A DNA stretch of 64,000 nt from Gammaproteobacteria bacterium (GCA_026984775.1 JALSRM010000037.1:49604-113603); one strand, 5' to 3'; positions 16,599-29,299 are shown, numbered from the stretch's first letter. Notes: a model not told the origin generated them from the letters alone. Numbers and translations are program-made.

Positions 16599-19500
16599 TC
16601 AACTGTCGGCTTCATCATATCCAAGATTTGGTGCGAGCCAACGTTCGATAGTGGAAATATCCATGCCCTTGCGTCTGGCGTAATCCTGGATTTGATCACG
16701 ATTGAGCTTGCCCACACCGAAGTAACGTGATTCAGGGTGTGAAAAATACCAGCCACTGACAGCCGCTGTTGGTACCATGGCATAGTGCTCGGTCAGGGTA
16801 ATCCCTGTATTTTTCTCAACATCCAGCAATTCCCAGAGCAGGGGTTTTTCGGTGTGATCAGGACAGGCCGGATAACCAGGCGCTGGTCTTATGCCCTGGT
16901 ATTGTTCGGCTATCAAAGCGTTATTGTCGAGGTGCTCATCCGGAGCGTAGCCCCAGAATTCTGTACGCACTCGCTGATGCATCCTTTCGGCAAAGGCTTC
17001 GGCCAGCCGATCAGCCAGTGCTTTGAGCATGATAGCACTATAATCATCGTGATCCGTTTCGAATTCAGCGAGTTTGTTTTCCATCCCAAAACCGGTGGCA
17101 ACGGCAAAGGCACCAATATAGTCCTCTACGTGCTTTTCCTGAGGGCCAATGAAATCGGCCAGTGCATAGTTGGGCTGACCCGGCGGCTTGCGTGTCTGCT
17201 GACGTAGAGAATGGATGACCATGAGTTCACCATCACGATTCTCACTGCTATAGATCTCGATATCGTCATCACCTATGGTGTTTGCGGGGAAGAGGCCTAT
17301 CACTCCTCTTGCAGTGAACCATTTTTCTTCAATGATCCGATCGAGCATGTGCTGGGCATCCTGATAGAGTTTGGTTGCTTCTTCTCCCACCGATTTATCT
17401 TGCAGAATACGCGGAAATTTCCCGGCCAGTTCCCATGCTATGAAGAAGGGTGTCCAGTCGATATATTCTCGTAACTCGGCAAGGGAGTAATCTTCGAATA
17501 CATGGATACCCGGTTGTTTCGGAACAGGAGGTGTATAACTGGACCAGTCGATGGGTGTTTTGTTTTCGCGTGCCTGATCCAGTGTCAGCCATTCGGTTTT
17601 TGACTGTCTGCCCTTATGACGTTCACGCACCATGTCATATTCCTTTTTAAGTTCCTGGACTAACTCTTCCTTCATCTCCACATTCAGAAGCCGGGTAGAG
17701 ATACCTACAGCGCGTGAAGCATCCTTTACATGAACAACCGGATGGTCGTAGTTCGGGTCGATCTTAACGGCCGTATGAGCTCTTGAGGTCGTAGCACCGC
17801 CTATCATCAGTGGCAAAGTGAATTCCTGCCGTTGCATTTCCTTGGCAACATGAACCATCTCATCAAGGGAAGGGGTGATAAGCCCACTGAGGCCAATCAG
17901 ATCGGCATTCAATTCCCGGGCCTTGTCGAGGATGGTTTGTGCAGGCACCATGACTCCAAGATCAATGACTTCAAAATTGTTGCACTGAAGAACGACACCG
18001 ACGATATTTTTTCCAATATCGTGCACATCCCCCTTGACGGTTGCCATGATAATCTTACCGTTTGTCTGGGTCTCGCCTGCTACCTTTTCCGCTTCGATAT
18101 AGGGCAACAGATAGGCAACTGCCTTCTTCATGACCCTTGCACTCTTGACGACCTGGGGCAGAAACATCTTCCCTGCACCAAACAGATCACCCACGACATT
18201 CATTCCCTCCATCAGAGGGCCCTCAATGACATCCAAAGGCTTTTCTGCCTTTTGACGGGCTTCTTCAGTATCTTCCTCGATAAATTCCGCGATACCTTTG
18301 ACCAGAGCATGTGTGATCCGCTCCTGAACAGTACCTTTTCGCCACTCCAGATCTGCTTTTCTTTCTTTTGTTCCACCACTTTCAGCCTTGAATCTTTCGG
18401 CGAACTCGACCAATCGATCGGTGGCATCAGGTCGACGATTCAGAAGCACATCTTCAATCCGTTCCAACAGATCATCCGGGATTTCATCGTAGATGCCGAG
18501 CTGACCAGCATTGACAATAGCCATATCCAGTCCTGCCTGGATGGCGTGGTAAAGGAAAACCGCATGCATAGCCTCTCGCACAGGAGTGTTACCACGAAAT
18601 GAAAAGGAGACGTTACTTAACCCCCCGCTTACCAGTGCGTAGGGTAAATGCTCCTTGATGAGTCGTGTGGCCTCAAAGAAGGAAACCGCATAGTTGTTGT
18701 GCTCTTCCATACCCGTTGCCACGGTGAGCACATTGGGATCAAAGATAATATCCTCAGGTGGGAACCCGACCTGGTTAACCAGCAGGTTGTAGGATCGCTT
18801 GCAAACCTCGAAGCGGCGTTCAGTGGTGTCAGCTTGTCCTTTTTCATCGAAAGCCATTACCACCACGGCAGCGCCGTAACGTCGAACCAGTTTGGCTCGT
18901 TCCAGAAACTTTTCCTCACCTTCCTTTAGGCTGATCGAGTTGACAATTGGCTTTCCTTGTACACAACGCAGGCCTGCTTCAATGACAGACCATTTTGAGG
19001 AATCAATCATGACCGGAACACGACTGATATCCGGTTCTGAGGCAATGAGGTTGAGAAAATCCTGCATCAGTTGCGCGGAATCGAGCATGCCCTCATCCAT
19101 ACAAATATCAATGATTTGAGCACCATTTTCCACTTGTTGACGGGCAACTTCCAAAGCAGCATCTAAATCCTGTTCTTCCTTGATTAAGCGCAGAAATTTG
19201 GGGGAGCCGGCAACATTGGTCCGCTCTCCTACATTTACAAAATTGACATCAGGTGTGATATTGAAAGGTTCGAGACCGGAGAGGCGCTGTACAATCGGCA
19301 GATCCGGTATTTTCCTGGGGGATATGCCCTCAATGGCTTCTGCCATAGCGCGGATATGATCCGGTGTTGTGCCACAACAGCCACCAACGATATTGAGCAG
19401 ACCGGCTTCAGCCCATTCGTGGATATGCTTGGACATTTCCGGCGCTTCCAGATCATACTCACCGAATTCGTTGGGAAGTCCGGCATTAGGATGGGCACTA

Positions 19501-20312
19501 ACAAAGGTTTCCGAGAACGAAGCCAGTTCTTCAACATACTGGCGCAAATCTGCCGGGCCTAGGGCGCAGTTTAAGCCAATGGATAAGGGTTTCGCATGAC
19601 GCAGTGAGTTATAAAAGGCCTCGACGGTTTGACCGGTCAATGTCCGGCCGGATGCATCTGTGATAGTGCCAGAGATCATAATGGGTAAGCATATGTTCTG
19701 CTTTTCGAAATACTGATCAATAGCAAAAAGGGCGGCTTTGGCATTCAAGGTATCGAAAATGGTTTCGACCATCAGGATATCGACACCTCCTTCAACCAGG
19801 CCCCTGACTGCATCTGTATAGGCCTCGACCAGTTCCATGAAAGTGATGTTCCGGTAGCCCGGGTTATTGACATCAGGAGAAATGGAACAAGTTCTGTTGG
19901 TTGGTCCGAGTACACCGGCGACATACCGGGGTTTAGATGGATCAGAAAACGTGAACTCATCCGCGACCTCTCGGGCCAGCATGGCTCCTGCCAGATTCAG
20001 TTCATAGGCCAGTTTTTCCTGTTGATAATCAGCCAGGGCGATGGAAGTGGAGTTGAAACTATTTGTCTCAACGATATCCGCACCAGCCTCAAAATAGGCA
20101 CGATGGATCGATTTGATAATCTCTGGTTGAGTCAATGACAGCAGATCATTGTTGCCTTTTACATCACAGGGATGGTCAGCGAAACGCTCCCCACGGTAAT
20201 CGGCTTCTTCCAGGTTATAAGACTGGATCATCGTCCCCATTGCGCCATCCAGCAGCAGGATTCGTTCCCTCAGGGAGCAGTGAAGATGAGCCAGTCTTTT
20301 TTCGCGATTCAT
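16599..20312 (-). CDS. metH: Cobalamin-dependent methionine synthase
   Basis: Hcy-binding, pterin-binding, B12-binding (DxHxxG region) and AdoMet activation domains all recognisable; start set at [10 protein letters not shown]...[15 protein letters not shown], which aligns with the E. coli MetH N-terminus; the ORF track start at 20423 is rejected. Confidence 0.95.
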
Positions 20313-20430
20313 AGAGTTTTTGGATCGGTGATTGTTTATCAAAACGCTCAATTTTACATTGATTTGATGTATATGACTAAAATTAACTGTAATTTCACAC
20401 TTGATAGACAGAATCTTATCCAATAATTAG

Positions 20431-20494
20431 CCATTACTAATATTACTAATTTATAATATATGTTGCATAAAAAATTAGTGAATGCTAATATTAG
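20431..20494. promoter_or_regulatory. Divergent metH/arsR promoter region with direct repeat ATTACTAAT x2, a TATAAT box (20452-20457) and the palindrome CTAATATTAG (20485-20494)
   Basis: Repeats and palindrome read directly from the sequence; the palindrome is the expected ArsR/SmtB-type operator geometry. Confidence 0.4.
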
Positions 20495-20505
20495 AGAAGA
20501 CGAAT

Positions 20506-20802
20506 ATGAACGTTAATGAAATGGAAAAAAATGCAAAGGAGGCCTCAAATCTGCTGAAGTCTCTGGCCAACCCTAACCGGTTAATGGTGCTCTGTCACCT
20601 CAGCAAAAACGAATGCACAGTTGGAGAGCTGGAAAAACTTGTTGGATTAAGCCAGTCGGCATTATCCCAGCATCTGGCCAGACTGAGAGAAGAAGAGATT
20701 GTCGAATGCAGAAGGGAAGCCCAAAGCATGCATTATTCCGTCAGGGATGAAAAGACAAAGAAATTACTAGAATCGTTGTATGAACTGTATTGTAACACCT
20801 GA
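20506..20802 (+). CDS. ArsR/SmtB-family transcriptional regulator, possibly SqrR/BigR-like (Cys in helix alpha2 and near the C-terminus)
   Basis: wHTH region ...VGELEKLVGLSQSALSQHLARLREEEIV...; Cys in VLCHL and in C-terminal ELYCNT; start taken at the second ATG (20506) because the first (20482) sits inside the palindrome and lacks an SD. Confidence 0.7.
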   Translation: MNVNEMEKNAKEASNLLKSLANPNRLMVLCHLSKNECTVGELEKLVGLSQSALSQHLARLREEEIVECRREAQSMHYSVRDEKTKKLLESLYELYCNT

Positions 20803-20850
20803 AAACTTATACAAAAGCAGTTACAGAACCCATTAACAAGGAGTAAAGAG

Positions 20851-21057
20851 ATGAACATCGATCGCATGGTTTTTGCAATTGCTGGTACTTTTATACTAGT
20901 CAGTTTAGCCCTTTCACAGCTTCATTCGATCTATTGGTTGTGGTTTACAGCCTTCGTCGGGGCAAACATGTTGCAGGCAGCTTTTACAGGTTTCTGCCCG
21001 CTCGCAAAGATACTGGCTAAGTTGGGTATAAAGTCAGGCTGTGCCTTCCAAGAGTAA
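20851..21057 (+). CDS. DUF2892 (YgaP-like) small inner-membrane protein
   Basis: 68 aa with two TM helices and a conserved C-terminal Cys ([13 protein letters not shown]); this family commonly follows ArsR/BigR-type regulators. Confidence 0.6.
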
Positions 21058-21067
21058 ACGAACATAG

Positions 21068-21628
21068 ATGAAACAAGCAGGACTTGTCTTTACCTTTCTA
21101 CTTTCACTGGCTGTTCAGGCGGAACCTGTGGTGAACTATGAGAAGGAAGCCGAAGCAGTGGCTGGCCAATTGCTCAAAGAATTGGGTTCTGCCTTAAAAA
21201 AACAGATTCAGGAAGGCGGGCCTGAACAGGCAGTAAAGGTATGTTCGGAACTGGCGCCCGAGATTGTAAACCGCCTTTCAATAGAGAAGGGTTGGAGAAT
21301 CACACGAGTAGGGACGCGTGTAAGAAACCCGCTACTTGGAACCCCCGACCGCTGGGAACAAGAAGCTCTTGCCTATTTTGAGCGACGCGCAGCCGGCGGA
21401 AACGATCTGAAAGATATGAGTTACTCAGAGATTGTCGAAGAGCCTGCTGGTCGCTATTTTCGGTACATGAAGCCTTTGGTGATCAAACCCTTGTGCATGA
21501 TTTGTCATGGTGAGGCTTCCCAGATTCCTGACACCATAAAGAAGACCTATCCTCATGACAGAGCAACTGGTTATCATGTCGGAGATTTGAGAGGTGGAAT
21601 TGTTATTAAACGACCATTGTCTGAATGA
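21068..21628 (+). CDS. Periplasmic DUF3365 (Tll0287-like) protein with c-type haem motif
   Basis: Signal peptide MKQAGLVFTFLLSLAVQA; a single CxxCH (CMICHG); size and pattern of DUF3365 haem sensor-like proteins. Confidence 0.55.
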   Translation: MKQAGLVFTFLLSLAVQAEPVVNYEKEAEAVAGQLLKELGSALKKQIQEGGPEQAVKVCSELAPEIVNRLSIEKGWRITRVGTRVRNPLLGTPDRWEQEALAYFERRAAGGNDLKDMSYSEIVEEPAGRYFRYMKPLVIKPLCMICHGEASQIPDTIKKTYPHDRATGYHVGDLRGGIVIKRPLSE

Positions 21629-21660: not shown

Positions 21661-21684
21661 GGCCCCATATGGGGCCTTTTTTAT
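21661..21684 (+). terminator. Rho-independent terminator GGCCCCATATGGGGCC + TTTTTTAT
   Basis: GC-rich hairpin plus T-tract immediately after the DUF3365 stop. Confidence 0.8.
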
Positions 21685-21753
21685 GTAATGTTGGATGTTA
21701 TGATTTAGCCTGTATAGGAGTATGCGCTCGAAATTTAGTCTCTTTAAGAGGAT

Positions 21754-21779
21754 TCTATAGATCACATTTTTTCTATAGA
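21754..21779. promoter_or_regulatory. Two copies of the palindrome TCTATAGA spaced 18 bp centre-to-centre, about 90-115 bp upstream of the 21869 gene
   Basis: Read directly from the sequence: TCTATAGAtcacatttttTCTATAGA. Confidence 0.3.
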
Positions 21780-21868
21780 ATAATACTCTGAATAACAAGT
21801 AGATAAATTTATTAGTTGTAGTAAACTCTCATACGATTAAACAACGATAGCAAGGAAATCCTGAACGC

Positions 21869-22996
21869 ATGACCAATCCTGACGGGAAAAGGACGGTTCT
21901 TGTAAACCTGATCGGAATCGATCAACGCAACCGGAATGTTATCGAAATGGTCTTCGAACGGGAATTCGACAACTCTTTTTCCCTTGGGAATACAGGTTCA
22001 GCAGATCTGAGTATCGTCGATCTGGACAAATATGGTGCTGAAGAGGAATGGTCAGCACTGCAACAGGCAAAGTCTGATCAGCTTGCGGTTCTCATGTCGA
22101 TAGATGAAAAACACAGGTCGCCAAATCATCTTTTTATCAAAAAACCTGTAACGATTGCTGATCTGGTTACTGCACTCAACAAGGCAAGGAATAAACTCGT
22201 TACAGGGACTTTTACACCGGAAAAAAAACAATACTCTTGGCGAAATATTTTTACTCCTCGTCTCTCAATAAAGAAAAAGAGAAGTACAGGTTCTGAACAC
22301 AAGAAAGAATCAACGAAATCTGATGCCATCAGATACCTTAGTGAGAAAGGTTATCTGATTGATGAAGTCAAAAAAGCCGTATTACTAGCAAATACGGAAG
22401 GCCATGGTATCAAGCTGCAAATTAACAATCAGGGAAGTATTTTTATTGATCCGACTGAACATTGGATCAATACCGATTTAACCCCTGAAGGTTTGAAGGA
22501 CCTGTGCGAGAGACCGATCGAACGCTCAGATTTTATGAAGCGTGTTTTCAGTGATCGGGAGTTTTCGAAGTATCTCGAGGAGTGGCGAGATACTCGTCTG
22601 AAACCAATAGATATAGATGCCTTTCTCTGGGATCTGGCATTGTGGACATATGATGGTGCATTACCTGCGGGTACTGACCTGAAAAAGAAAATCGTTCTCA
22701 GCTACTGGCCTGATCTGCCCCGGTTTACGCCTGTTCCGAATGCCATGCGGATTGCTGCACTTTGGGTTTCATGCCCCATGACCTTGCTTGAGACCAGCGA
22801 GGTACTCAAGATTTCTATGGAAGATGTCATCCGTTTTTACACGGCTGTGTCAAGTCTGGGATTGATCAAGGACGGAAGTCAGAACGAGAATCCCGGTAAT
22901 CAGCCTGAACTGAGTAGAACAACCGTTAGATCAGAGAAAAACAAAAGAGAACTCTATCTCCGTATAATCAAATATCTCAAAGGGCAAAATTCCTGA
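21869..22996 (+). CDS. Hypothetical protein: N-terminal receiver (REC)-like domain plus C-terminal domain of unknown function with an HTH-like end (DUF742-like?)
   Basis: N-terminus resembles CheY-like receivers (hydrophobic strand TVLVNLIG, candidate acceptor Asp in LSIVDLDKYG, conserved K-P in LFIKKPVT); the C-terminus ...TLLETSEVLKISMEDVIRFYTAVSSLGLIKDG resembles a small wHTH; no confident family assignment. Confidence 0.5.
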   Translation: MTNPDGKRTVLVNLIGIDQRNRNVIEMVFEREFDNSFSLGNTGSADLSIVDLDKYGAEEEWSALQQAKSDQLAVLMSIDEKHRSPNHLFIKKPVTIADLVTALNKARNKLVTGTFTPEKKQYSWRNIFTPRLSIKKKRSTGSEHKKESTKSDAIRYLSEKGYLIDEVKKAVLLANTEGHGIKLQINNQGSIFIDPTEHWINTDLTPEGLKDLCERPIERSDFMKRVFSDREFSKYLEEWRDTRLKPIDIDAFLWDLALWTYDGALPAGTDLKKKIVLSYWPDLPRFTPVPNAMRIAALWVSCPMTLLETSEVLKISMEDVIRFYTAVSSLGLIKDGSQNENPGNQPELSRTTVRSEKNKRELYLRIIKYLKGQNS

Positions 22997-22998
22997 TA

Positions 22999-23958
22999 AT
23001 GGAAATAACAAAACAAAAATCGTTGCCCACTGATTCTCATCTCGATGATTACAGAATCCAGAAATGCATTTCAGTTTCAGACGAATTTGTTACCTATCTG
23101 GCCATTGATCAACAGCTGGAATTGCAACTAATTATTACGGAGTACTTTCCTAGTGAAATCGTCTATAGAATGGATAACGGTACTGTTCATGTGAAAGAGC
23201 CGAGGCGAATTGCTGAATTTTTGGATAAGCTCAATGAGCTTCATAAACGAGTTAAAGCGAGGGTGTCTCGAAATGACAAGGGAGTCGACAATGTTATTCG
23301 TTTTCTTTTTTTCAATGGAACTGCTTATGTTGTCTCAAAATACAGTACCCGAACGGATTTGGATCGTTATCTCTCGGAAATGAACCTGACGATCCAAGGT
23401 AGTGAGTTATCGGGGTGTACAGGTAAAGACTCATTATGTCAGAAGGTAACGATCGAAAACAGTATCGTCTTTACTGGTTTTGCACGAGCAGGCAAGTCAA
23501 CAGCGATCAGGTTACTGAGTGACGGTGACATGATCGATAAAGAATCAGGTCTGGCTTATGGGAAACTGGGGACCGGTAGTCTTGAGATCTATTTGTTGGA
23601 ACTGTCCGCTGATCATTTTGAAAACTGTTTGAAAGCTGAACCAATGGGTTACGTCTTGCTGATCGATAACAGCAGAAAGGATCCTTTTAATCACCTTGAT
23701 TATTTTCTTGACAAAATGGACGAACATCGACTGGAAAATGTCGTGATCGGCATCACACATACTGATCAATCCAGGATTCCATCGATCCCTGATTATCATC
23801 TTCATCTTGAAAACAGATCTATCAATTCACGCAGAATATGCCCTATCTTCTCTGTTGATCCACGGAACAGGTCCGATGTGACCATGCTCATCAAGGCACT
23901 TATTTACTCTCATGATCCACTTCTGTCAGACATTTTTTTTGAAGACACGATCCTTTGA
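22999..23958 (+). CDS. Hypothetical P-loop NTPase, small-GTPase-like C-terminal domain with N-terminal domain of unknown function
   Basis: Walker A GFARAGKST; then a hhhhD box (VLLIDNSR) and GITHTD resembling the [N/H/T]KxD G4 motif of MglA/Rag-type GTPases; the start is coupled 3 bp after the upstream stop. Confidence 0.5.
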   Translation: MEITKQKSLPTDSHLDDYRIQKCISVSDEFVTYLAIDQQLELQLIITEYFPSEIVYRMDNGTVHVKEPRRIAEFLDKLNELHKRVKARVSRNDKGVDNVIRFLFFNGTAYVVSKYSTRTDLDRYLSEMNLTIQGSELSGCTGKDSLCQKVTIENSIVFTGFARAGKSTAIRLLSDGDMIDKESGLAYGKLGTGSLEIYLLELSADHFENCLKAEPMGYVLLIDNSRKDPFNHLDYFLDKMDEHRLENVVIGITHTDQSRIPSIPDYHLHLENRSINSRRICPIFSVDPRNRSDVTMLIKALIYSHDPLLSDIFFEDTIL

Positions 23959-24058
23959 AAAATATTTTTCTTCAAAGAGTTAATTCCCGCTGATTGAAGT
24001 AATTTGTTTACCGGCCGATACAGGTTGCGATATGGATTGATTCCGGGGTTTTATTTCC

Positions 24059-24421
24059 ATGCGTGAAGACATGCTTGTTTCGATATTGAATGAATTGAAT
24101 GGATCGACTGTCGACATCCAGGGATCGGCCGTTATTTCTATTGACGGATTATTGATCGCCAGTGCATTACCGACGAGTTTTGACGAAGAAATGGTAAGCG
24201 CAATGACAGCGGCAATGTTGATGCTTGGGGAGAGGACCGCCAGAGAACTACAGCGTGGTGAACTTGAGCAGGTGATTGTCAAGGGCCGTCTGGGTTATGT
24301 GATCATGGTCCGATCTGGTCCGGAATCTGTTCTTTGTGTACTTGCCCGTCCTGATGCCAAATTGGGGCTCGTACTGCTGGATGCAGCACGAGCCGCCGAA
24401 GATATTCCAAAGGTATTATGA
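24059..24421 (+). CDS. Roadblock/LC7 (MglB-like) domain protein
   Basis: 120 aa; IQGSAVISIDGLLIAS...EEMVSAMTAAMLMLGERTA...GYVIMVRSGPESVLCVLARPDAKLGLVLLD fits the Roadblock/LC7 fold pattern closely. Confidence 0.7.
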   Translation: MREDMLVSILNELNGSTVDIQGSAVISIDGLLIASALPTSFDEEMVSAMTAAMLMLGERTARELQRGELEQVIVKGRLGYVIMVRSGPESVLCVLARPDAKLGLVLLDAARAAEDIPKVL

Positions 24422-24437: not shown

Positions 24438-25712
24438 CTAACCACAGTCCAGTTTTGTTATCCCCAACAATTTCAGGAACTGCCGCTCATAGTAGGGATC
24501 TGTCTTCCCGGTTTTTACCTTCCGCAGATGATATTTCTCAAACATCACTTTTGCTGCATGAACCCATTTTCCCTGTTTTGCCCAGGTTACGTTTCGTGGA
24601 GGGATCTGTGGCATGGCGACAAAGGCAATACCTGAATCCCCCATATCTGCAAGGCAGATGGCGTTCCATGTTGCTGTGTGTGAAGGTTGTTTGCCATTTA
24701 GAAGTTCTGCAATATTTCCAACGGTTGCACACACCATGGATTCGATCATATACCCGGTTTTGGGCACACCCGTAGGCACAGGTGTTGTCTCGGGCGGGGC
24801 AATAGCAATGCAGACACCTGCAGCAAAAATATTGTCATACGTTGGATTCCGCTGGTATTCATCGACGATAATAAAACCTCTAGGATTGACCAGGCCTTCG
24901 ATACCCATGACTGCATCAATTCCGGTAAAGGCGGGCAGAATCATGGAATAGTTGAAAGGGAGTTCATGTTTTTTCTTTGTTTCACCATTGTCATCGACTT
25001 CGGTGATAAACATGGTATTTTCTTCAATTTTGTCGATTTTTGCGTTGGTAATCCAGTTGATATGTCGATCCCGGAGAACGCCTTCCAGTAAATCCTTTGA
25101 ATTGCCGACACCACCCAGTCCCAGATGGCCGATATAAGGCTCCGAGGTGACGAATGTCATCGGTACCTTGTGTCGTATTTTTTTCTTTCGTAATTCAGTA
25201 TCGGCAATGAAGGCATACTCATAAGCGGGGCCAAAGCAGGATGCAAGTTGGGCTGCTCCAACAATCATCGGCCCGGGGTTCTCAACAAATTTATCCCACT
25301 CTTTGGCTGCTTCTACTGCATGATCAACGTGGCAGATTGATTTCGTAAATCCGTCAGGCCCTAATCCTGGAATTTCATCGAAGGCCAGGCGTGGACCTGT
25401 TGTGATCGCGAGGTAGTCATAGGTGACCTCGGTGCCATCTTCCAGTTCTATACGGTTTTCATCTGGATGCAGGCGTTTCGCAGCTTTGGGGATGAAGTCA
25501 ATATTTTTCCTTTCGAGGTAGGGCTTTAATTCAACCTTGATGTTATCAGGTGTTCTCCAGTTAACGGCAACCCAAGGATTGGAAGGTACGAAGTGGAACG
25601 TAGGACTGTCTGAAATCAATGTCACCTGATCATTCGGTCCTGCCTTTTCACGCATTTCATAAGCGAGTGTTGTACCAGCGATTCCGCCCCCGAGAACGAT
25701 TATTTTTGCCAT
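24438..25712 (-). CDS. sqr: Sulfide:quinone oxidoreductase (FAD-dependent pyridine nucleotide-disulfide oxidoreductase family)
   Basis: N-terminal FAD fold IVLGGGIAGTT; about 425 aa; SQR-typical segments (VPSNPWV, the Cys-containing loop GVCIAIAPPETTPVPTGVPKTGYMIESM). Confidence 0.8.
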   Translation of the reverse strand: MAKIIVLGGGIAGTTLAYEMREKAGPNDQVTLISDSPTFHFVPSNPWVAVNWRTPDNIKVELKPYLERKNIDFIPKAAKRLHPDENRIELEDGTEVTYDYLAITTGPRLAFDEIPGLGPDGFTKSICHVDHAVEAAKEWDKFVENPGPMIVGAAQLASCFGPAYEYAFIADTELRKKKIRHKVPMTFVTSEPYIGHLGLGGVGNSKDLLEGVLRDRHINWITNAKIDKIEENTMFITEVDDNGETKKKHELPFNYSMILPAFTGIDAVMGIEGLVNPRGFIIVDEYQRNPTYDNIFAAGVCIAIAPPETTPVPTGVPKTGYMIESMVCATVGNIAELLNGKQPSHTATWNAICLADMGDSGIAFVAMPQIPPRNVTWAKQGKWVHAAKVMFEKYHLRKVKTGKTDPYYERQFLKLLGITKLDCG

Positions 25713-25832: not shown

Positions 25833-28493
25833 ATGTCATCTAAAAAATCAAGCTGGTTAATCGATTGGGCTGTAGCGAGACCAAGATTTTTTACCTGGTT
25901 GATGGTGTTTTCCACATTTTTACTGATTATACTCGCAGCAGTGCCCAGTATCTGGCCGGAAAAGGTGCCTGCCTTACATAGCATCGAGGTTGATACCGAC
26001 CCGGAAAACATGCTCCCTGCAGATGAACCGGTCCGTCTCTTTCACAATGCTGCAAAGAAAGAATTTTCGCTCAATGACATTGTTGTGGTGGGAATTGTCA
26101 ACGATAAGCATCCAGAAGGTGTTTTCAATCCAGAATCATTACAACGGGTTTATGACCTGACTGAATTCGCAAAAACACTCCAGTGGTCTGATAAAGAAGG
26201 TAAACATGGTGTAGTCGAGATCGATATTATTGCGCCTTCCACGGTGGACAACATTGAGCAGGGAGGCATGGGTGTGGTCAATTTCAGTTGGTTGATGCCT
26301 CGACCACCCAAGACTCAGGAGGAAGCGCTTTCTATCCGTGAAAGAGCCATGAATATTCCTTTTCTGAAGGGAACCATGGTAAGCGAGGATGGCAAGGCAT
26401 TGGCTATCTATTTGCCCTTGGTAAGCAAGCATGATTCCTATGAAGTCCGCAAGGCATTACTGGGTTTTATAAAGGAGTGGGACGGTGATGAGCAGGTACA
26501 TATTACAGGACTACCTGTGGCTGAAGACACCTTCGGTGTCGAAATGTTTACCCAGATGGCAATCTCCGCCCCCCTTGCCATGCTTGTGATTTTTGTACTT
26601 CTGTGGTGGTTCTTCAGAAATTTGACACTGATTGTATCTCCCATGATCGTTGCCATGGTCAGCGCCCTTTCTACCATGGCCTTGCTGGTTATCACGGGTA
26701 ATACGATCCATATCATGAGTTCCATGATACCCATCTTTATCATGCCGATTGCCGTCCTTGACTCAATTCATATTCTCTCGGAGTTTTTTGATCGCTACCC
26801 TCAAATCAGGGATCGCAAGAAGACCATCATTGAGGTCATGAAGCATCTTTTTACACCGATGCTGTTTACCTCCGTGACAACAATGGCGGGTTTTGCGTCA
26901 CTGGCTTTAACTCCGATACCTCCTGTCCAAGTGTTTGGAATATTTGTTGCAATCGGAGTGTTCCTGGCCTGGTTCTGGACCATTGTCTTCATTCCTGCTT
27001 ATGTGATGCTGATGCCGGAGGCAAAGCTTGAAGGGTTTGGTCAATCTGTATCGGATAGTGGAGATACTACAGGCATGGCCAAATTTCTCCATGGACTTGG
27101 AAAATGGACACATGACCATCCTAAAACTGTTCTTGCAGTTACCTTTTTGTGTGTGCTTATTTCTGTCTATGGCATTAGCAGGATCCAGATTAATGATAAT
27201 CCAATCAAGTGGTTTGAGCCGGATCATCCTATCAGAGTCGCAGACAAGATCCTGAACGAACACTTTGGTGGAACCTATATTGCCTATTTGCAATACGAGG
27301 CAGACGATAAAGGACTTTCCGTGGACAGTTACATTACTGAATTGGAGCAACGCCTCGAGCAATGGAAAGCACAGGTATTGGCTGATGAATATGCTCAGGT
27401 GGAGGCTGTCTATACAAAAGCTGTTCAGCTTATGAAAGAAACCCAGGCCGAGTCCATCGAAGATTATCTGTCAAAGCTTCAAGGCAGGGTCAATGATCTC
27501 ATGGATCATGCTTCTGATGAAGAGTACGATACTTGGTCCGAGCTGGCATTATTCTTTGACCGAGAGGATCAAAGAAACGAGGTTTTCAAACAACCCGAGG
27601 TACTTCGATATCTCTCCAGGTTGCAGGACTTTCTTTTGCAGACTGGTGTCGTAGGCAAGGTCAATGCTTTACCCGATATCATCAAAACCGTACATCGTGA
27701 ACTGTTCCTTGGCGATGCTGATCATTTCCGTATTCCGGATAGTGTAAATGGTGTCGCGCAAACTCTGATTACTTATCAAAACAGTCATCGACCTCAGGAT
27801 TTGTGGCATTTCGTCACTCCAGATTACAAGAAAAGTAATCTGATGTTGCAACTCACCAGTGGTGACAACAAGGACATGGAAAAAGTTATTGCGGCAGTAG
27901 CAGATTTCGAAGAACAGAATCCGCCCCCAATGGCCTTGAAATCAAACTGGTTCGGACTTACTTATATCAATGTGATTTGGCAGGATCATATGGTACAAGG
28001 TATGCTGAAATCATTTATGGGCAGTTTCGTCATCGTTCTGTTAATGATGGTGTTCCTGTTCCGTTCAGCCTTGTTTGGTATTCTGTCCATGATCCCTCTG
28101 ACGGTAACGGTTGGCCTTATCTATGGTGTGATTGGCCTGATTGGAAAAGATTACGATATGCCTGTTGCCGTACTCAGCGCATTGAGTCTTGGGCTTGCGA
28201 TCGACTATGCGATTCATTTCCTTGCACGTTCACGGGAGGCTGTACGCGAAACCGGAAATTGGCACAATGCGGTAGATGTTGTCTTTGGTGAACCCGCTCG
28301 TGCGATCACAAGGAATGTGATCATACTTGGAGCTGGTTTTCTGCCATTGCTCGCCGCCCCGCTTGTGCCATATCAGACGGTAGGCTTTTTTATCGCTTCC
28401 ATACTGGTTTGTGCAGGTATTGCAACATTATTGATTTTACCTTCTGCCATGACATTACTTGAGAAGTATCTCTTTAGAGGAGAATTATCATGA
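25833..28493 (+). CDS. MMPL/RND-superfamily transporter (12 TM, two large periplasmic loops; HpnN/MmpL-like exporter)
   Basis: 886 aa with two hydrophobic bundles separated by soluble loops, an architecture typical of RND/MMPL; followed by LolA-like and outer-membrane-barrel genes. Confidence 0.75.
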   Translation: MSSKKSSWLIDWAVARPRFFTWLMVFSTFLLIILAAVPSIWPEKVPALHSIEVDTDPENMLPADEPVRLFHNAAKKEFSLNDIVVVGIVNDKHPEGVFNPESLQRVYDLTEFAKTLQWSDKEGKHGVVEIDIIAPSTVDNIEQGGMGVVNFSWLMPRPPKTQEEALSIRERAMNIPFLKGTMVSEDGKALAIYLPLVSKHDSYEVRKALLGFIKEWDGDEQVHITGLPVAEDTFGVEMFTQMAISAPLAMLVIFVLLWWFFRNLTLIVSPMIVAMVSALSTMALLVITGNTIHIMSSMIPIFIMPIAVLDSIHILSEFFDRYPQIRDRKKTIIEVMKHLFTPMLFTSVTTMAGFASLALTPIPPVQVFGIFVAIGVFLAWFWTIVFIPAYVMLMPEAKLEGFGQSVSDSGDTTGMAKFLHGLGKWTHDHPKTVLAVTFLCVLISVYGISRIQINDNPIKWFEPDHPIRVADKILNEHFGGTYIAYLQYEADDKGLSVDSYITELEQRLEQWKAQVLADEYAQVEAVYTKAVQLMKETQAESIEDYLSKLQGRVNDLMDHASDEEYDTWSELALFFDREDQRNEVFKQPEVLRYLSRLQDFLLQTGVVGKVNALPDIIKTVHRELFLGDADHFRIPDSVNGVAQTLITYQNSHRPQDLWHFVTPDYKKSNLMLQLTSGDNKDMEKVIAAVADFEEQNPPPMALKSNWFGLTYINVIWQDHMVQGMLKSFMGSFVIVLLMMVFLFRSALFGILSMIPLTVTVGLIYGVIGLIGKDYDMPVAVLSALSLGLAIDYAIHFLARSREAVRETGNWHNAVDVVFGEPARAITRNVIILGAGFLPLLAAPLVPYQTVGFFIASILVCAGIATLLILPSAMTLLEKYLFRGELS

Positions 28494-29299
28494 AACGATT
28501 AACAGTACTTTTGATATCACTGTTTTTGGCTGCCTCTGCCATTGCTGCAGATCCCACGATCGAAGAGATCGTGAACAGGGCAAATCTTGCAACTTACTAT
28601 CAAGGAAAGGATGGACGTGCGCATGTGAAAATGACTATTACGGATAGCCAGGGACGAAAACGTATGCGCAAGCTCACCATTCTGCGTTGGGATCAGCCCG
28701 ATACGGATGAGCTTGAAAATGGCGCTTATCGTGGAAAGCAGAAATTCTATGTCTACTTCTCGCGTCCTGCAGATGTCAACAAAATGGTATTCCTCGTTTG
28801 GAAGAATCTAGACAAGGATGACGATCGCTGGTTATATCTCCCAGCGCTTGATCTTGTTAAGCGAATAGCCGCTTCTGACAAACGAACGAGTTTTGTAGGG
28901 TCTGACTTCTTCTATGAAGATGTTTCCGGCCGTGATATTGATGAAGATGAGCATGAGCTGTTGAAGACAACGGATAAATATTTCGTTATCAAGAATACGC
29001 CAAAAGATCCATCTTCCGTTGAGTTTGCCTATTACATGATGTATATCCACAAAAAAACGTTCCTCCCGATCCAGGTGGAATACTACGATGCGCAGGATAA
29101 GAAATATCGTGTCGCTAAGGCATTGAAGGTGGAAAATATCCAAGGTCATCCAACCGTAACCAAGGCAAGTATGGAAAGCCTCAATCAAGGTAGCAAGACT
29201 GTAATGGAATACTCCTCAGTAAAATATGATACAGGGATTCCTGAAGATATTTTTACTGAAAGGTATTTACGAAAACCGCCTAGAAAATATCTTAAATAA
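28490..29299 (+). CDS. Outer-membrane lipoprotein-sorting (LolA-like, DUF1329-type) periplasmic protein
   Basis: Signal peptide MKRLTVLLISLFLAASAIA; 4-bp overlap with the MMPL gene; this family commonly accompanies MMPL transporters. Confidence 0.65.
   Translation: MKRLTVLLISLFLAASAIAADPTIEEIVNRANLATYYQGKDGRAHVKMTITDSQGRKRMRKLTILRWDQPDTDELENGAYRGKQKFYVYFSRPADVNKMVFLVWKNLDKDDDRWLYLPALDLVKRIAASDKRTSFVGSDFFYEDVSGRDIDEDEHELLKTTDKYFVIKNTPKDPSSVEFAYYMMYIHKKTFLPIQVEYYDAQDKKYRVAKALKVENIQGHPTVTKASMESLNQGSKTVMEYSSVKYDTGIPEDIFTERYLRKPPRKYLK

Follow-up and report, generated by a model that had tools for sequence, protein, structure and literature searches.

A probable reduced Group 3 MglA/MglB module with a degenerate kinase-GTPase fusion in a gammaproteobacterial genome

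In this study we analysed a 64,000-nucleotide (nt) stretch of DNA from a Gammaproteobacteria bacterium (GCA_026984775.1, JALSRM010000037.1; the whole stretch is called the window below, and positions are counted from its first letter), in which three genes, g1, g2 and g3, encode a receiver-like protein, a GTPase-like protein and a Roadblock protein, respectively. We consider it likely that this locus represents the Group 3 MglA/MglB module of beta- and gamma-proteobacteria in a reduced and catalytically degenerate form, in which g2 serves as a non-hydrolysing adaptor. Taken by themselves, the classification and the degeneracy are highly probable, and the adaptor role of g2 has about an even chance of being right. 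In the g2 product, what remains of a Hanks-type kinase N-lobe is fused to an MglA-type G domain that has lost catalytic motifs. The locus is an evolutionary variant of a described module and not a new class of system. It had been noticed in a sequence-only reading, made by a model without database searches, as a GTPase-based signalling switch of undescribed layout.

Results

The g2 product is a kinase N-lobe remnant fused to a degenerate G domain

The g2 gene (22999..23958, + strand) encodes 319 amino acids (aa). Few proteins are related to it over its whole length, and these include two proteins of 496-500 aa, P0002 and P0003, with Pkinase and Roc/Ras/ATP_bind_1 matches. In an alignment with the full-length fusions (P0002, P0003 and those of loci L008 and L009), residues 1-135 of g2 correspond to a kinase N-lobe and residues 150-319 to a G domain, and the entire kinase C-lobe, with HRD, DFG and the activation segment, is missing from g2. 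The N-lobe remnant (23011..23391, +, aa 5-131) comprises beta1-beta5 and alphaC; it has no Gly-rich loop and the VAIK Lys is replaced (LIITEY). A kinase profile matched g2 at positions 7-133 only (E=1.5e-21), and tblastn with the N-lobe of P0002 hit the N-lobe region of g2 (E=3e-9). In the AlphaFold2 model (mean predicted local distance difference test, pLDDT, of 80), a five-stranded sheet with an alphaC-like helix is followed by an alpha/beta domain with a Ras-like fold (pLDDT up to 97). The best Foldseek match of the model was the Hanks kinase PpkA (E=4.9e-8), and dozens of Rab/Arf/Ras structures were also found, with template modelling (TM) scores of 0.55-0.66 and E values down to 8e-8. By alignment, Foldseek, tblastn and the kinase profile, the N-terminal part of about 150 aa that the sequence-only reading had called a domain of unknown function is a kinase N-lobe remnant, and the Ras-like fold that it expected of the remainder is borne out by structure prediction.

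The Ras-like G domain (23446..23925, +, aa 150-309) belongs to a family whose profile matched Rab in the PDB at E~1e-9. The profile of canonical Group 3 MglA proteins matched g2 at E=2e-33, aligning only at profile positions 4-32 and 79-176 and leaving 33-78 unaligned. The G1 P-loop GFARAGKST (23476-23502, +, aa 160-168; canonical GPVGAGKTT) is intact. About 16 residues of switch I, canonically TTVAMDYG, are deleted, and ELSADH (23599-23616, +) replaces the canonical G3 motif TPGQERF, whose catalytic Gln is gone. G4 is THTD (23749-23766, +, where GITHTD is aa 251-256; canonical [TS][RK]xD), and G5 is VDPR (23854-23865, +; DPR for canonical DAR). Conserved blocks retained in g2 are LLIDNxRKDP, VIGITHxD and the C-terminal helix. 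With switch I deleted and the PGQ of G3 lost together with its catalytic Gln, g2 is unlikely, judging from its motifs, to be a working GTPase switch. The sequence-only reading had correctly seen GFARAGKST and GITHTD; the GTPase-based switch that it proposed is made unlikely by the missing switch I and PGQ. An identical g2 protein and the same open reading frames (ORFs) were called in three independent public assemblies (L001-L003), so an assembly artefact does not account for the unusual g2.

The trio matches the published description of Group 3 MglA systems

Wuichet and Søgaard-Andersen (2014) found Group 3 MglA systems almost exclusively in beta/gamma-proteobacteria (PMC4316618). According to their survey, Group 3 MglA has a G4 motif without Lys, a G5 motif 'DAR' and one or two coupled MglB genes, and its partner is a conserved unknown protein with a receiver (REC)-like N-terminus, a variable linker, a C-terminus reported from Phyre2 as winged helix-turn-helix (wHTH)-like, and no Pfam match (PMC4316618). 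The window locus agrees with each of these features. Its close relatives are 'Gammaproteobacteria bacterium' metagenome-assembled genomes, and canonical relatives occur in Thiopseudomonas, Cocleimonas, Nitrosococcus and Thiodiazotropha. The g1 protein has a REC fold, a disordered linker, a three-helix C-terminal domain and no Pfam match. The g2 motifs are THTD, which is without the Lys of [NT]KxD, and VDPR. There is one Robl_LC7 gene, and the long second MglB is absent. The trio thus falls within a system already described and named, contrary to the earlier claim that its domain combination matches no described layout.

The g1 gene (21869..22996, +, 375 aa) was matched over its full length (E=8.9e-87) by a profile built from distant family members only, and the family has 1362 representatives at 50% clustering. 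The AlphaFold2 model of g1 (14 homologues, pLDDT 71.6) shows four parts and a terminal helix. The receiver (CheY-like) domain (21890..22204, +, aa 8-112; D18, D51/D53, S77, K92-P93) has the (beta/alpha)5 CheY fold, with S after beta4 and K-P after beta5, and when the N-terminal profile is aligned with E. coli CheY, S77 falls on T87 and K92-P93 on K109-P110. The receiver signature that had been read from the sequence, SIVDLDKYG (aa 48-56) and K92-P93, is present, and its fold is backed by both the structure prediction and the CheY alignment. D51, at the end of beta3 in the model, is invariant in the close clade but replaced by N in some distant members; D53 hardly varies across the family, and D18 is the only acidic residue after beta1. 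Because D53 and not D51 is near-invariant and a single acidic residue follows beta1, the predicted competence of g1 as a phospho-acceptor is only plausible.

The linker of g1 (22205..22330, +, aa 113-154) is disordered (pLDDT 23-43), and its length and composition vary in alignments. It is followed by a middle alpha/beta domain (22331..22717, +, aa 155-283; pLDDT 74-90) that has invariant columns, is conserved in distant members and ends in the family signature FLWDLALWTY...WPDLPR. The wHTH-like three-helix domain (22718..22873, +, aa 284-335; PNAMRIAALW...LGLIK) has helices at 292-301, 306-313 and 317-329 and a short strand in the model. The profile of this domain gave one weak match among PDB sequences, a small wHTH-type protein (E=0.18), and sub-threshold HTH_20 matches were seen in 2 g1-family members when 31 members were compared with Pfam. 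The wHTH assignment stays provisional because the sole profile match is weak. What had been called an unknown C-terminal domain with an HTH-like end is the known architecture of the Group 3 partner, and its end is HTH-like in this provisional sense.

Profile libraries, which had been proposed as a check, recognised g3 only. The g3 gene (24059..24421, +, 120 aa) matched Pfam Robl_LC7 with 58.4 bits against a cut-off of 23 (E=6e-16) and is the sole gene of the trio recognised by Pfam; it also matched a profile of the Roadblock proteins of canonical modules at E=4e-52. Its description as a clear Roadblock/LC7 (MglB-like) protein was right. Pfam and NCBIfam gave no significant match for g1 or g2, to G-domain families or, in g1, to Pfam Response_reg, and a Pfam scan of g1 and 31 family members gave no family match, no DUF742 and no HATPase. 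The receiver and G-domain identities therefore rest on predicted structures and homologues. Sub-threshold matches of g1 and g2 (FIST_N at E=0.0046, SAMP1, NosP and RecX) were rejected, being below cut-offs and on linker or P-loop segments.

Canonical modules keep the same partners

The G-domain profile retrieves hundreds of 'ATP/GTP-binding proteins' of ~180 aa (PF03029, Roc/Ras) in gammaproteobacteria, with hosts that include Thiodiazotropha, Cocleimonas, Nitrosococcus, Sedimenticola and Thiopseudomonas. The canonical module has five genes in the order small tetratricopeptide repeat (TPR) gene, g1-like gene, ~180-aa GTPase, long MglB of 183-213 aa with a weak Roadblock signal, and 120-aa Roadblock. 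This layout was found in L017 (Thiopseudomonas alkaliphila), L018 (Cocleimonas) and L004, where the fusion P0002 is the GTPase. To see how constant it is, 80 metagenomic loci with a canonical GTPase (L019-L098) were sampled and their neighbours scored by purpose-built profiles; 38 loci had enough flank. A g1-family gene lies directly upstream of the GTPase in 38/38 of them. A short Roadblock gene follows no more than 2.5 kb downstream in 35/38, and the other 3 loci have it at another place. A long MglB-like gene is present in 35/38, and a small TPR gene is found upstream of the g1-like gene in 34/38. The co-occurrence of the trio's partners, on which the sequence-only reading had staked its proposal, is thus conserved. 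None of the 80 canonical loci sampled showed a kinase domain.

Two side observations concern these modules. The canonical small TPR gene (e.g. in L020, L024 and L026), which is absent from the window clade, is reminiscent of SgmX, a TPR effector of Myxococcus xanthus MglA (PMC7519303). At L082:4771-8407, two g1-family genes flank MglA and a long MglB, and the short Roadblock gene is on the opposite strand, a duplicated or rearranged module.

A graded series of g2 forms in the window clade

P0002 (L004:8001-9503) and P0003 are full-length Hanks kinase-MglA fusions in which GxGxxG, VAIK, HRD and DFG are apparently intact. P0002 has canonical G1-G5 motifs; P0003 has APGK at G3 and THTS at G4. The P0002 module consists of a TPR gene, a g1-like gene of 454 aa, the fusion, a long MglB and a Roadblock gene. 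A kinase-MglA fusion is absent from the survey of PMC4316618, and we found no paper on the fusion or on a named g1 family, within incomplete coverage of the literature. In a 2025 preprint presenting an atlas of bacterial serine/threonine kinases, the words 'GTPase', 'Ras', 'Roc' and 'Roadblock' do not occur.

Nine distinct loci of the window clade, all from uncultured gammaproteobacteria, were compared. The g1 gene and the 120-aa Roadblock gene are present in 9/9 loci, and g2 is variable. The longest g2 forms (503-507 aa) have the full kinase domain with pseudokinase changes (Arg for Lys, altered HRD and DFG) and lack the Gln of G3. A 343-aa form (L007:7145-8176 and L013:6127-7158) has the N-lobe only and has also lost the P-loop Lys (GSAASDNT and GSAANDNT, respectively), and it keeps the VAIK-like Lys (VIIKEF). 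The window copy of 319 aa comes next, and in forms of 190-196 aa the kinase is entirely gone. In L015, g1 and g3 are intact and g2 is a pseudogene remnant: a 420-bp gap (L015:6137-6558) matches the C-terminal G-domain part of g2 by tblastn (E=1e-10). In a neighbour-joining tree of g1 and g3, the loci with full-length g2 branch at the base, and the shortened forms group in a single derived subclade.

Averaged over pairs within the clade, identity is 79% for g3, 52% for g1 and 41% for the g2 G domain. In L007/L013, the sole pair in which the synonymous rate (dS, ~0.8) is unsaturated, the ratio of nonsynonymous to synonymous rates (dN/dS) is 0.17 for g2, 0.09 for g1 and 0.02 for g3; within g2, the N-lobe stump has 0.21 and the G domain 0.13. 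The reduced g2 forms are under purifying selection and not neutral drift. The best conserved gene of the module is g3, with a dN/dS of 0.01-0.02.

Boundaries, base composition and neighbouring genes

ORF calls confirmed the three co-directional genes at the coordinates read from the sequence, all on the + strand. The coupling of g1 and g2 is tight as had been said, and its size is 2 nt (TGA-TA-ATG) rather than 3 bp; g3 starts 100 nt downstream of g2. The strong terminator seen upstream is present and forms the 5' boundary of the module: an intrinsic-terminator-like hairpin with a T-run (21661..21684, +; 6 G-C pairs, loop of 4, TTTTTT), whose stem-loop GGCCCC-ATAT-GGGGCC spans 21661-21676 (+) before the T-run. 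The impression, formed by eye, that the region is AT-richer than its neighbours also held when computed, the GC content being slightly low (0.422 at 21690-24421 against a window mean of 0.467; z = -1.84, with 2.8% of equal-sized windows as low). The low value stems from g2 (0.408) and g1 (0.433); g3 has 0.49. Horizontal transfer was considered as the source of the low GC and rejected: the dip is limited to g1 and g2, the GC content of g3 exceeds that of the window as a whole, and synteny of the locus extends across the clade. A search of the rest of the window found no second intact MglA, no other MglB or long MglB, no TPR gene and no further copy of g1.

The terminator closes a three-gene operon (20482-21628). 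Its products are a BigR-like repressor of the ArsR/SmtB family, which at 102 bits falls short of the equivalog cut-off of 155, a membrane protein resembling YgaP, and a Tll0287-like protein. Most clade members have a gene of the ArsR type upstream of the trio. On the downstream side a gene at 24438-25712 (-) converges on the trio, as the sequence-only reading had said. Its label 'sqr', for sulfide:quinone reductase (SQR), is plausible and not established: the predicted product is a Pyr_redox_2 flavoprotein that scores 108 bits against the NCBIfam model of type III SQR (selenoprotein subtype), which has a cut-off of 525. From 25833-29299 onward, the genes for an MMPL/RND-type transporter (886 aa) and a TP_0789/DUF1329-like (LolA-like) protein are translationally coupled, and they are followed by one for a 498-aa protein with no Pfam match on record. 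This arrangement is syntenic in L001, and also in L005 and L008 as far as those loci reach. On the other side, the metH ORF (16599-20423, -) was given a mechanical TTG start, which yields 1274 aa. The true start is probably ~37 codons downstream, because the gene calls in L001-L003, which have an identical g2, give 1237 aa.

Discussion

The history of the module was probably as follows. A canonical five-gene module would have gained a Hanks-type Ser/Thr kinase, fused to the N-terminus of its GTPase, in one gammaproteobacterial branch. In the window clade, the fusion would first have turned into a pseudokinase with a Gln-less G3; the kinase C-lobe would then have been lost, with the TPR and long-MglB genes absent. 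In canonical modules, the GTPase would cycle with MglB as its GTPase-activating protein (GAP), by homology with what published abstracts state of MglA/MglB and MfpB/MfpD, and the receiver/wHTH protein would be the input or output partner. In the window, g2 would be a non-hydrolysing adaptor, locked in one nucleotide state or nucleotide-free, that bridges the Roadblock dimer (g3) and g1. A signal, if any, would enter via the receiver-like domain of g1, and the output would be transcriptional, by way of its wHTH-like domain, or would consist in protein-protein contacts. Experimental data on Group 3 come from the Snodgrassella mgl locus, which concerns gut colonisation (PMC11112851); our literature search found no biochemical characterisation of Group 3, and the Snodgrassella colonisation results were the only functional data.

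Several points weigh against this proposal. That g1, g2 and g3 form a complex, that g2 works as an adaptor and may bind a nucleotide, and that g1 is phosphorylated and binds DNA is inferred. Between the window g2 and its nearest relatives dS is saturated, so the dN/dS values come from the relatives only. L015 has dispensed with g2, and because the gene is lost there altogether, g2 may be dispensable in the window organism too. The Group 3 assignment is based on the published description and on named gammaproteobacterial relatives, not on a joint phylogeny with the original Neisseria/Xanthomonas sequences. The P-loop and the G4- and G5-like motifs of g2 leave open a residual nucleotide-dependent switching with catalytic residues supplied in trans.

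One of the other explanations is a working GTPase switch, with g3 as its GAP or guanine nucleotide exchange factor (GEF) and two-component phosphorylation input via g1. The intact P-loop, the G4- and G5-like motifs and the predicted Ras-like fold with pLDDT up to 97 speak for it, as do the high conservation of the Roadblock partner and the receiver signature residues kept by g1; moreover, there are GTPases whose catalytic residues are supplied in trans, as has been suggested for Rup GTPases (PMC4316618). However, switch I with the conserved Thr of TTVAMDYG is deleted, PGQ is replaced at G3, and profile positions 33-78 find no counterpart in g2. In sister lineages the P-loop Lys (L007/L013) or the gene itself (L015) has gone while g1 and g3 are kept, g2 evolves fastest of the three genes, and there is no histidine kinase in or adjoining the module. 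We regard such a switch as improbable. Alternatively, g2 may be a functionless relic nearing loss, with g1 and the Roadblock protein alone as the working unit. The stepwise shrinkage that ends in the L015 pseudogene, the loss of all catalytic machinery of g2, and its GC content and conservation, both the lowest of the trio, speak for this. On the other hand, the ORF is intact in the window and in 8/9 lineages despite divergence to 30-40% identity, dN/dS is 0.17-0.24 for the reduced forms, with the N-lobe stump itself constrained, the G-domain blocks are strongly conserved, and the 2-nt spacing to g1 is kept. We find this explanation unlikely. A more serious possibility, still clearly less probable than the non-hydrolysing adaptor, is that g2 is a bacterial pseudokinase-pseudoGTPase acting as a nucleotide-independent scaffold that connects a Roadblock dimer with a receiver/wHTH regulator, and that its intact relatives of the P0002/P0003 type, within canonical five-gene modules, are an undescribed bacterial kinase-GTPase device with a logic like that of ROCO/LRRK2 proteins. 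If this is true, the kinase would phosphorylate the receiver-like partner, or the GTPase would gate the kinase, in those relatives, and the window clade would be a natural series of the dismantling of the device with the Roadblock-receiver core kept.

Two further explanations concern the setting and the ancestry of the trio. The position of the trio had hinted at a dedicated sulfide/redox regulator coupled to the BigR-like operon and the SQR-like gene, a role that is compatible with the other readings. The order metH, ArsR/BigR-like gene, YgaP, Tll0287, trio, flavoprotein and MMPL recurs in L005 and L008, and an ArsR-type gene is directly upstream of the trio in L009, L015 and L016 too. But all the syntenic genomes belong to one small uncultured gammaproteobacterial clade, and shared ancestry explains the synteny. 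The neighbours differ in L007 and L013, the canonical modules L004, L017 and L018 stand in unrelated contexts, the strong terminator divides the upstream operon from the trio, and the 'sqr' label is weak, at 108 of the 525 bits set by its model. The suggested sulfide link is unsupported, and we give a dedicated regulator of this kind little credence. Homology with the conservons of Actinobacteria (CvnA-D / Mfp), in which g1 would stand for CvnC (DUF742) and the kinase relic for CvnA, is by far the least probable explanation and is already largely refuted. The logic is alike, the components being a Roadblock protein, a GTPase of the MglA family whose G4 is non-canonical and whose G5 is of the DAR type, a helical or wHTH-like accessory protein and a kinase. 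However, g1 and the 31 family members gave no DUF742 or HATPase match, the kinase is of the Hanks type and not histidine-kinase-like, conservon G4 is NxFD, Group 2 is confined to Actinobacteria, and the gene order and the partner protein fit Group 3 instead.

Among known systems, Group 3 MglA/MglB shares with the window locus the partner architecture, the Lys-less G4, the DAR-type G5, a coupled MglB, the host class and the order partner-GTPase-MglB. The window locus differs in having one MglB only, without the long MglB and the small TPR gene, and in a GTPase that carries the relic of a Hanks kinase and, with switch I and G3 lost, is probably not a hydrolysing switch. The MglA/MglB/RomR system of M. 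xanthus (Group 1) likewise combines a Ras-like GTPase, a Roadblock protein and a receiver-domain protein, but its MglA belongs to another MglA group and has an intact PGQ and a canonical NKxD. RomR is not encoded beside mglA, and a role of RomRX as GEF is disputed (PMC13408092). The output in M. xanthus is cell polarity and motility, whereas nothing links the window module to motility genes. The conservons CvnA-D / MfpA-E (Group 2) are similar operons with a Roadblock gene, an MglA-family GTPase with unusual G4 and G5, an accessory gene and a kinase; they have the histidine-kinase-like CvnA and the DUF742 protein CvnC, neither of which is detectable at the window locus, they are found in Actinobacteria only, and their GTPase is catalytically active. 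Eukaryotic ROCO proteins of the LRRK2 type join a kinase and a Ras-like G domain in one polypeptide, as P0002 and P0003 do, but the bacterial fusions have the order kinase then GTPase, no COR domain and an independent bacterial origin, and the window copy is predicted to have neither activity. Like pseudoGTPases and pseudokinases, g2 has lost catalytic motifs and kept its fold under purifying selection.

In conclusion, Group 3 modules occur widely in beta- and gamma-proteobacteria, pathogens and symbionts among them, and the present locus contributes two points. One is the fusion of a Hanks-type kinase to MglA in one branch, of which we found no description; the apparently intact fusion (P0002/P0003) lies outside the window, and the window copy is at the degenerate end of the series. 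The other is the graded series itself, from an active-looking fusion through a pseudokinase-GTPase, an N-lobe stump and a bare degenerate G domain to a pseudogene. The Roadblock and receiver-like genes are strongly constrained throughout this series, and this points to the Roadblock-receiver pair as the indispensable core of the module. The clade also provides ready-made natural 'mutants' for asking what the GTPase contributes.

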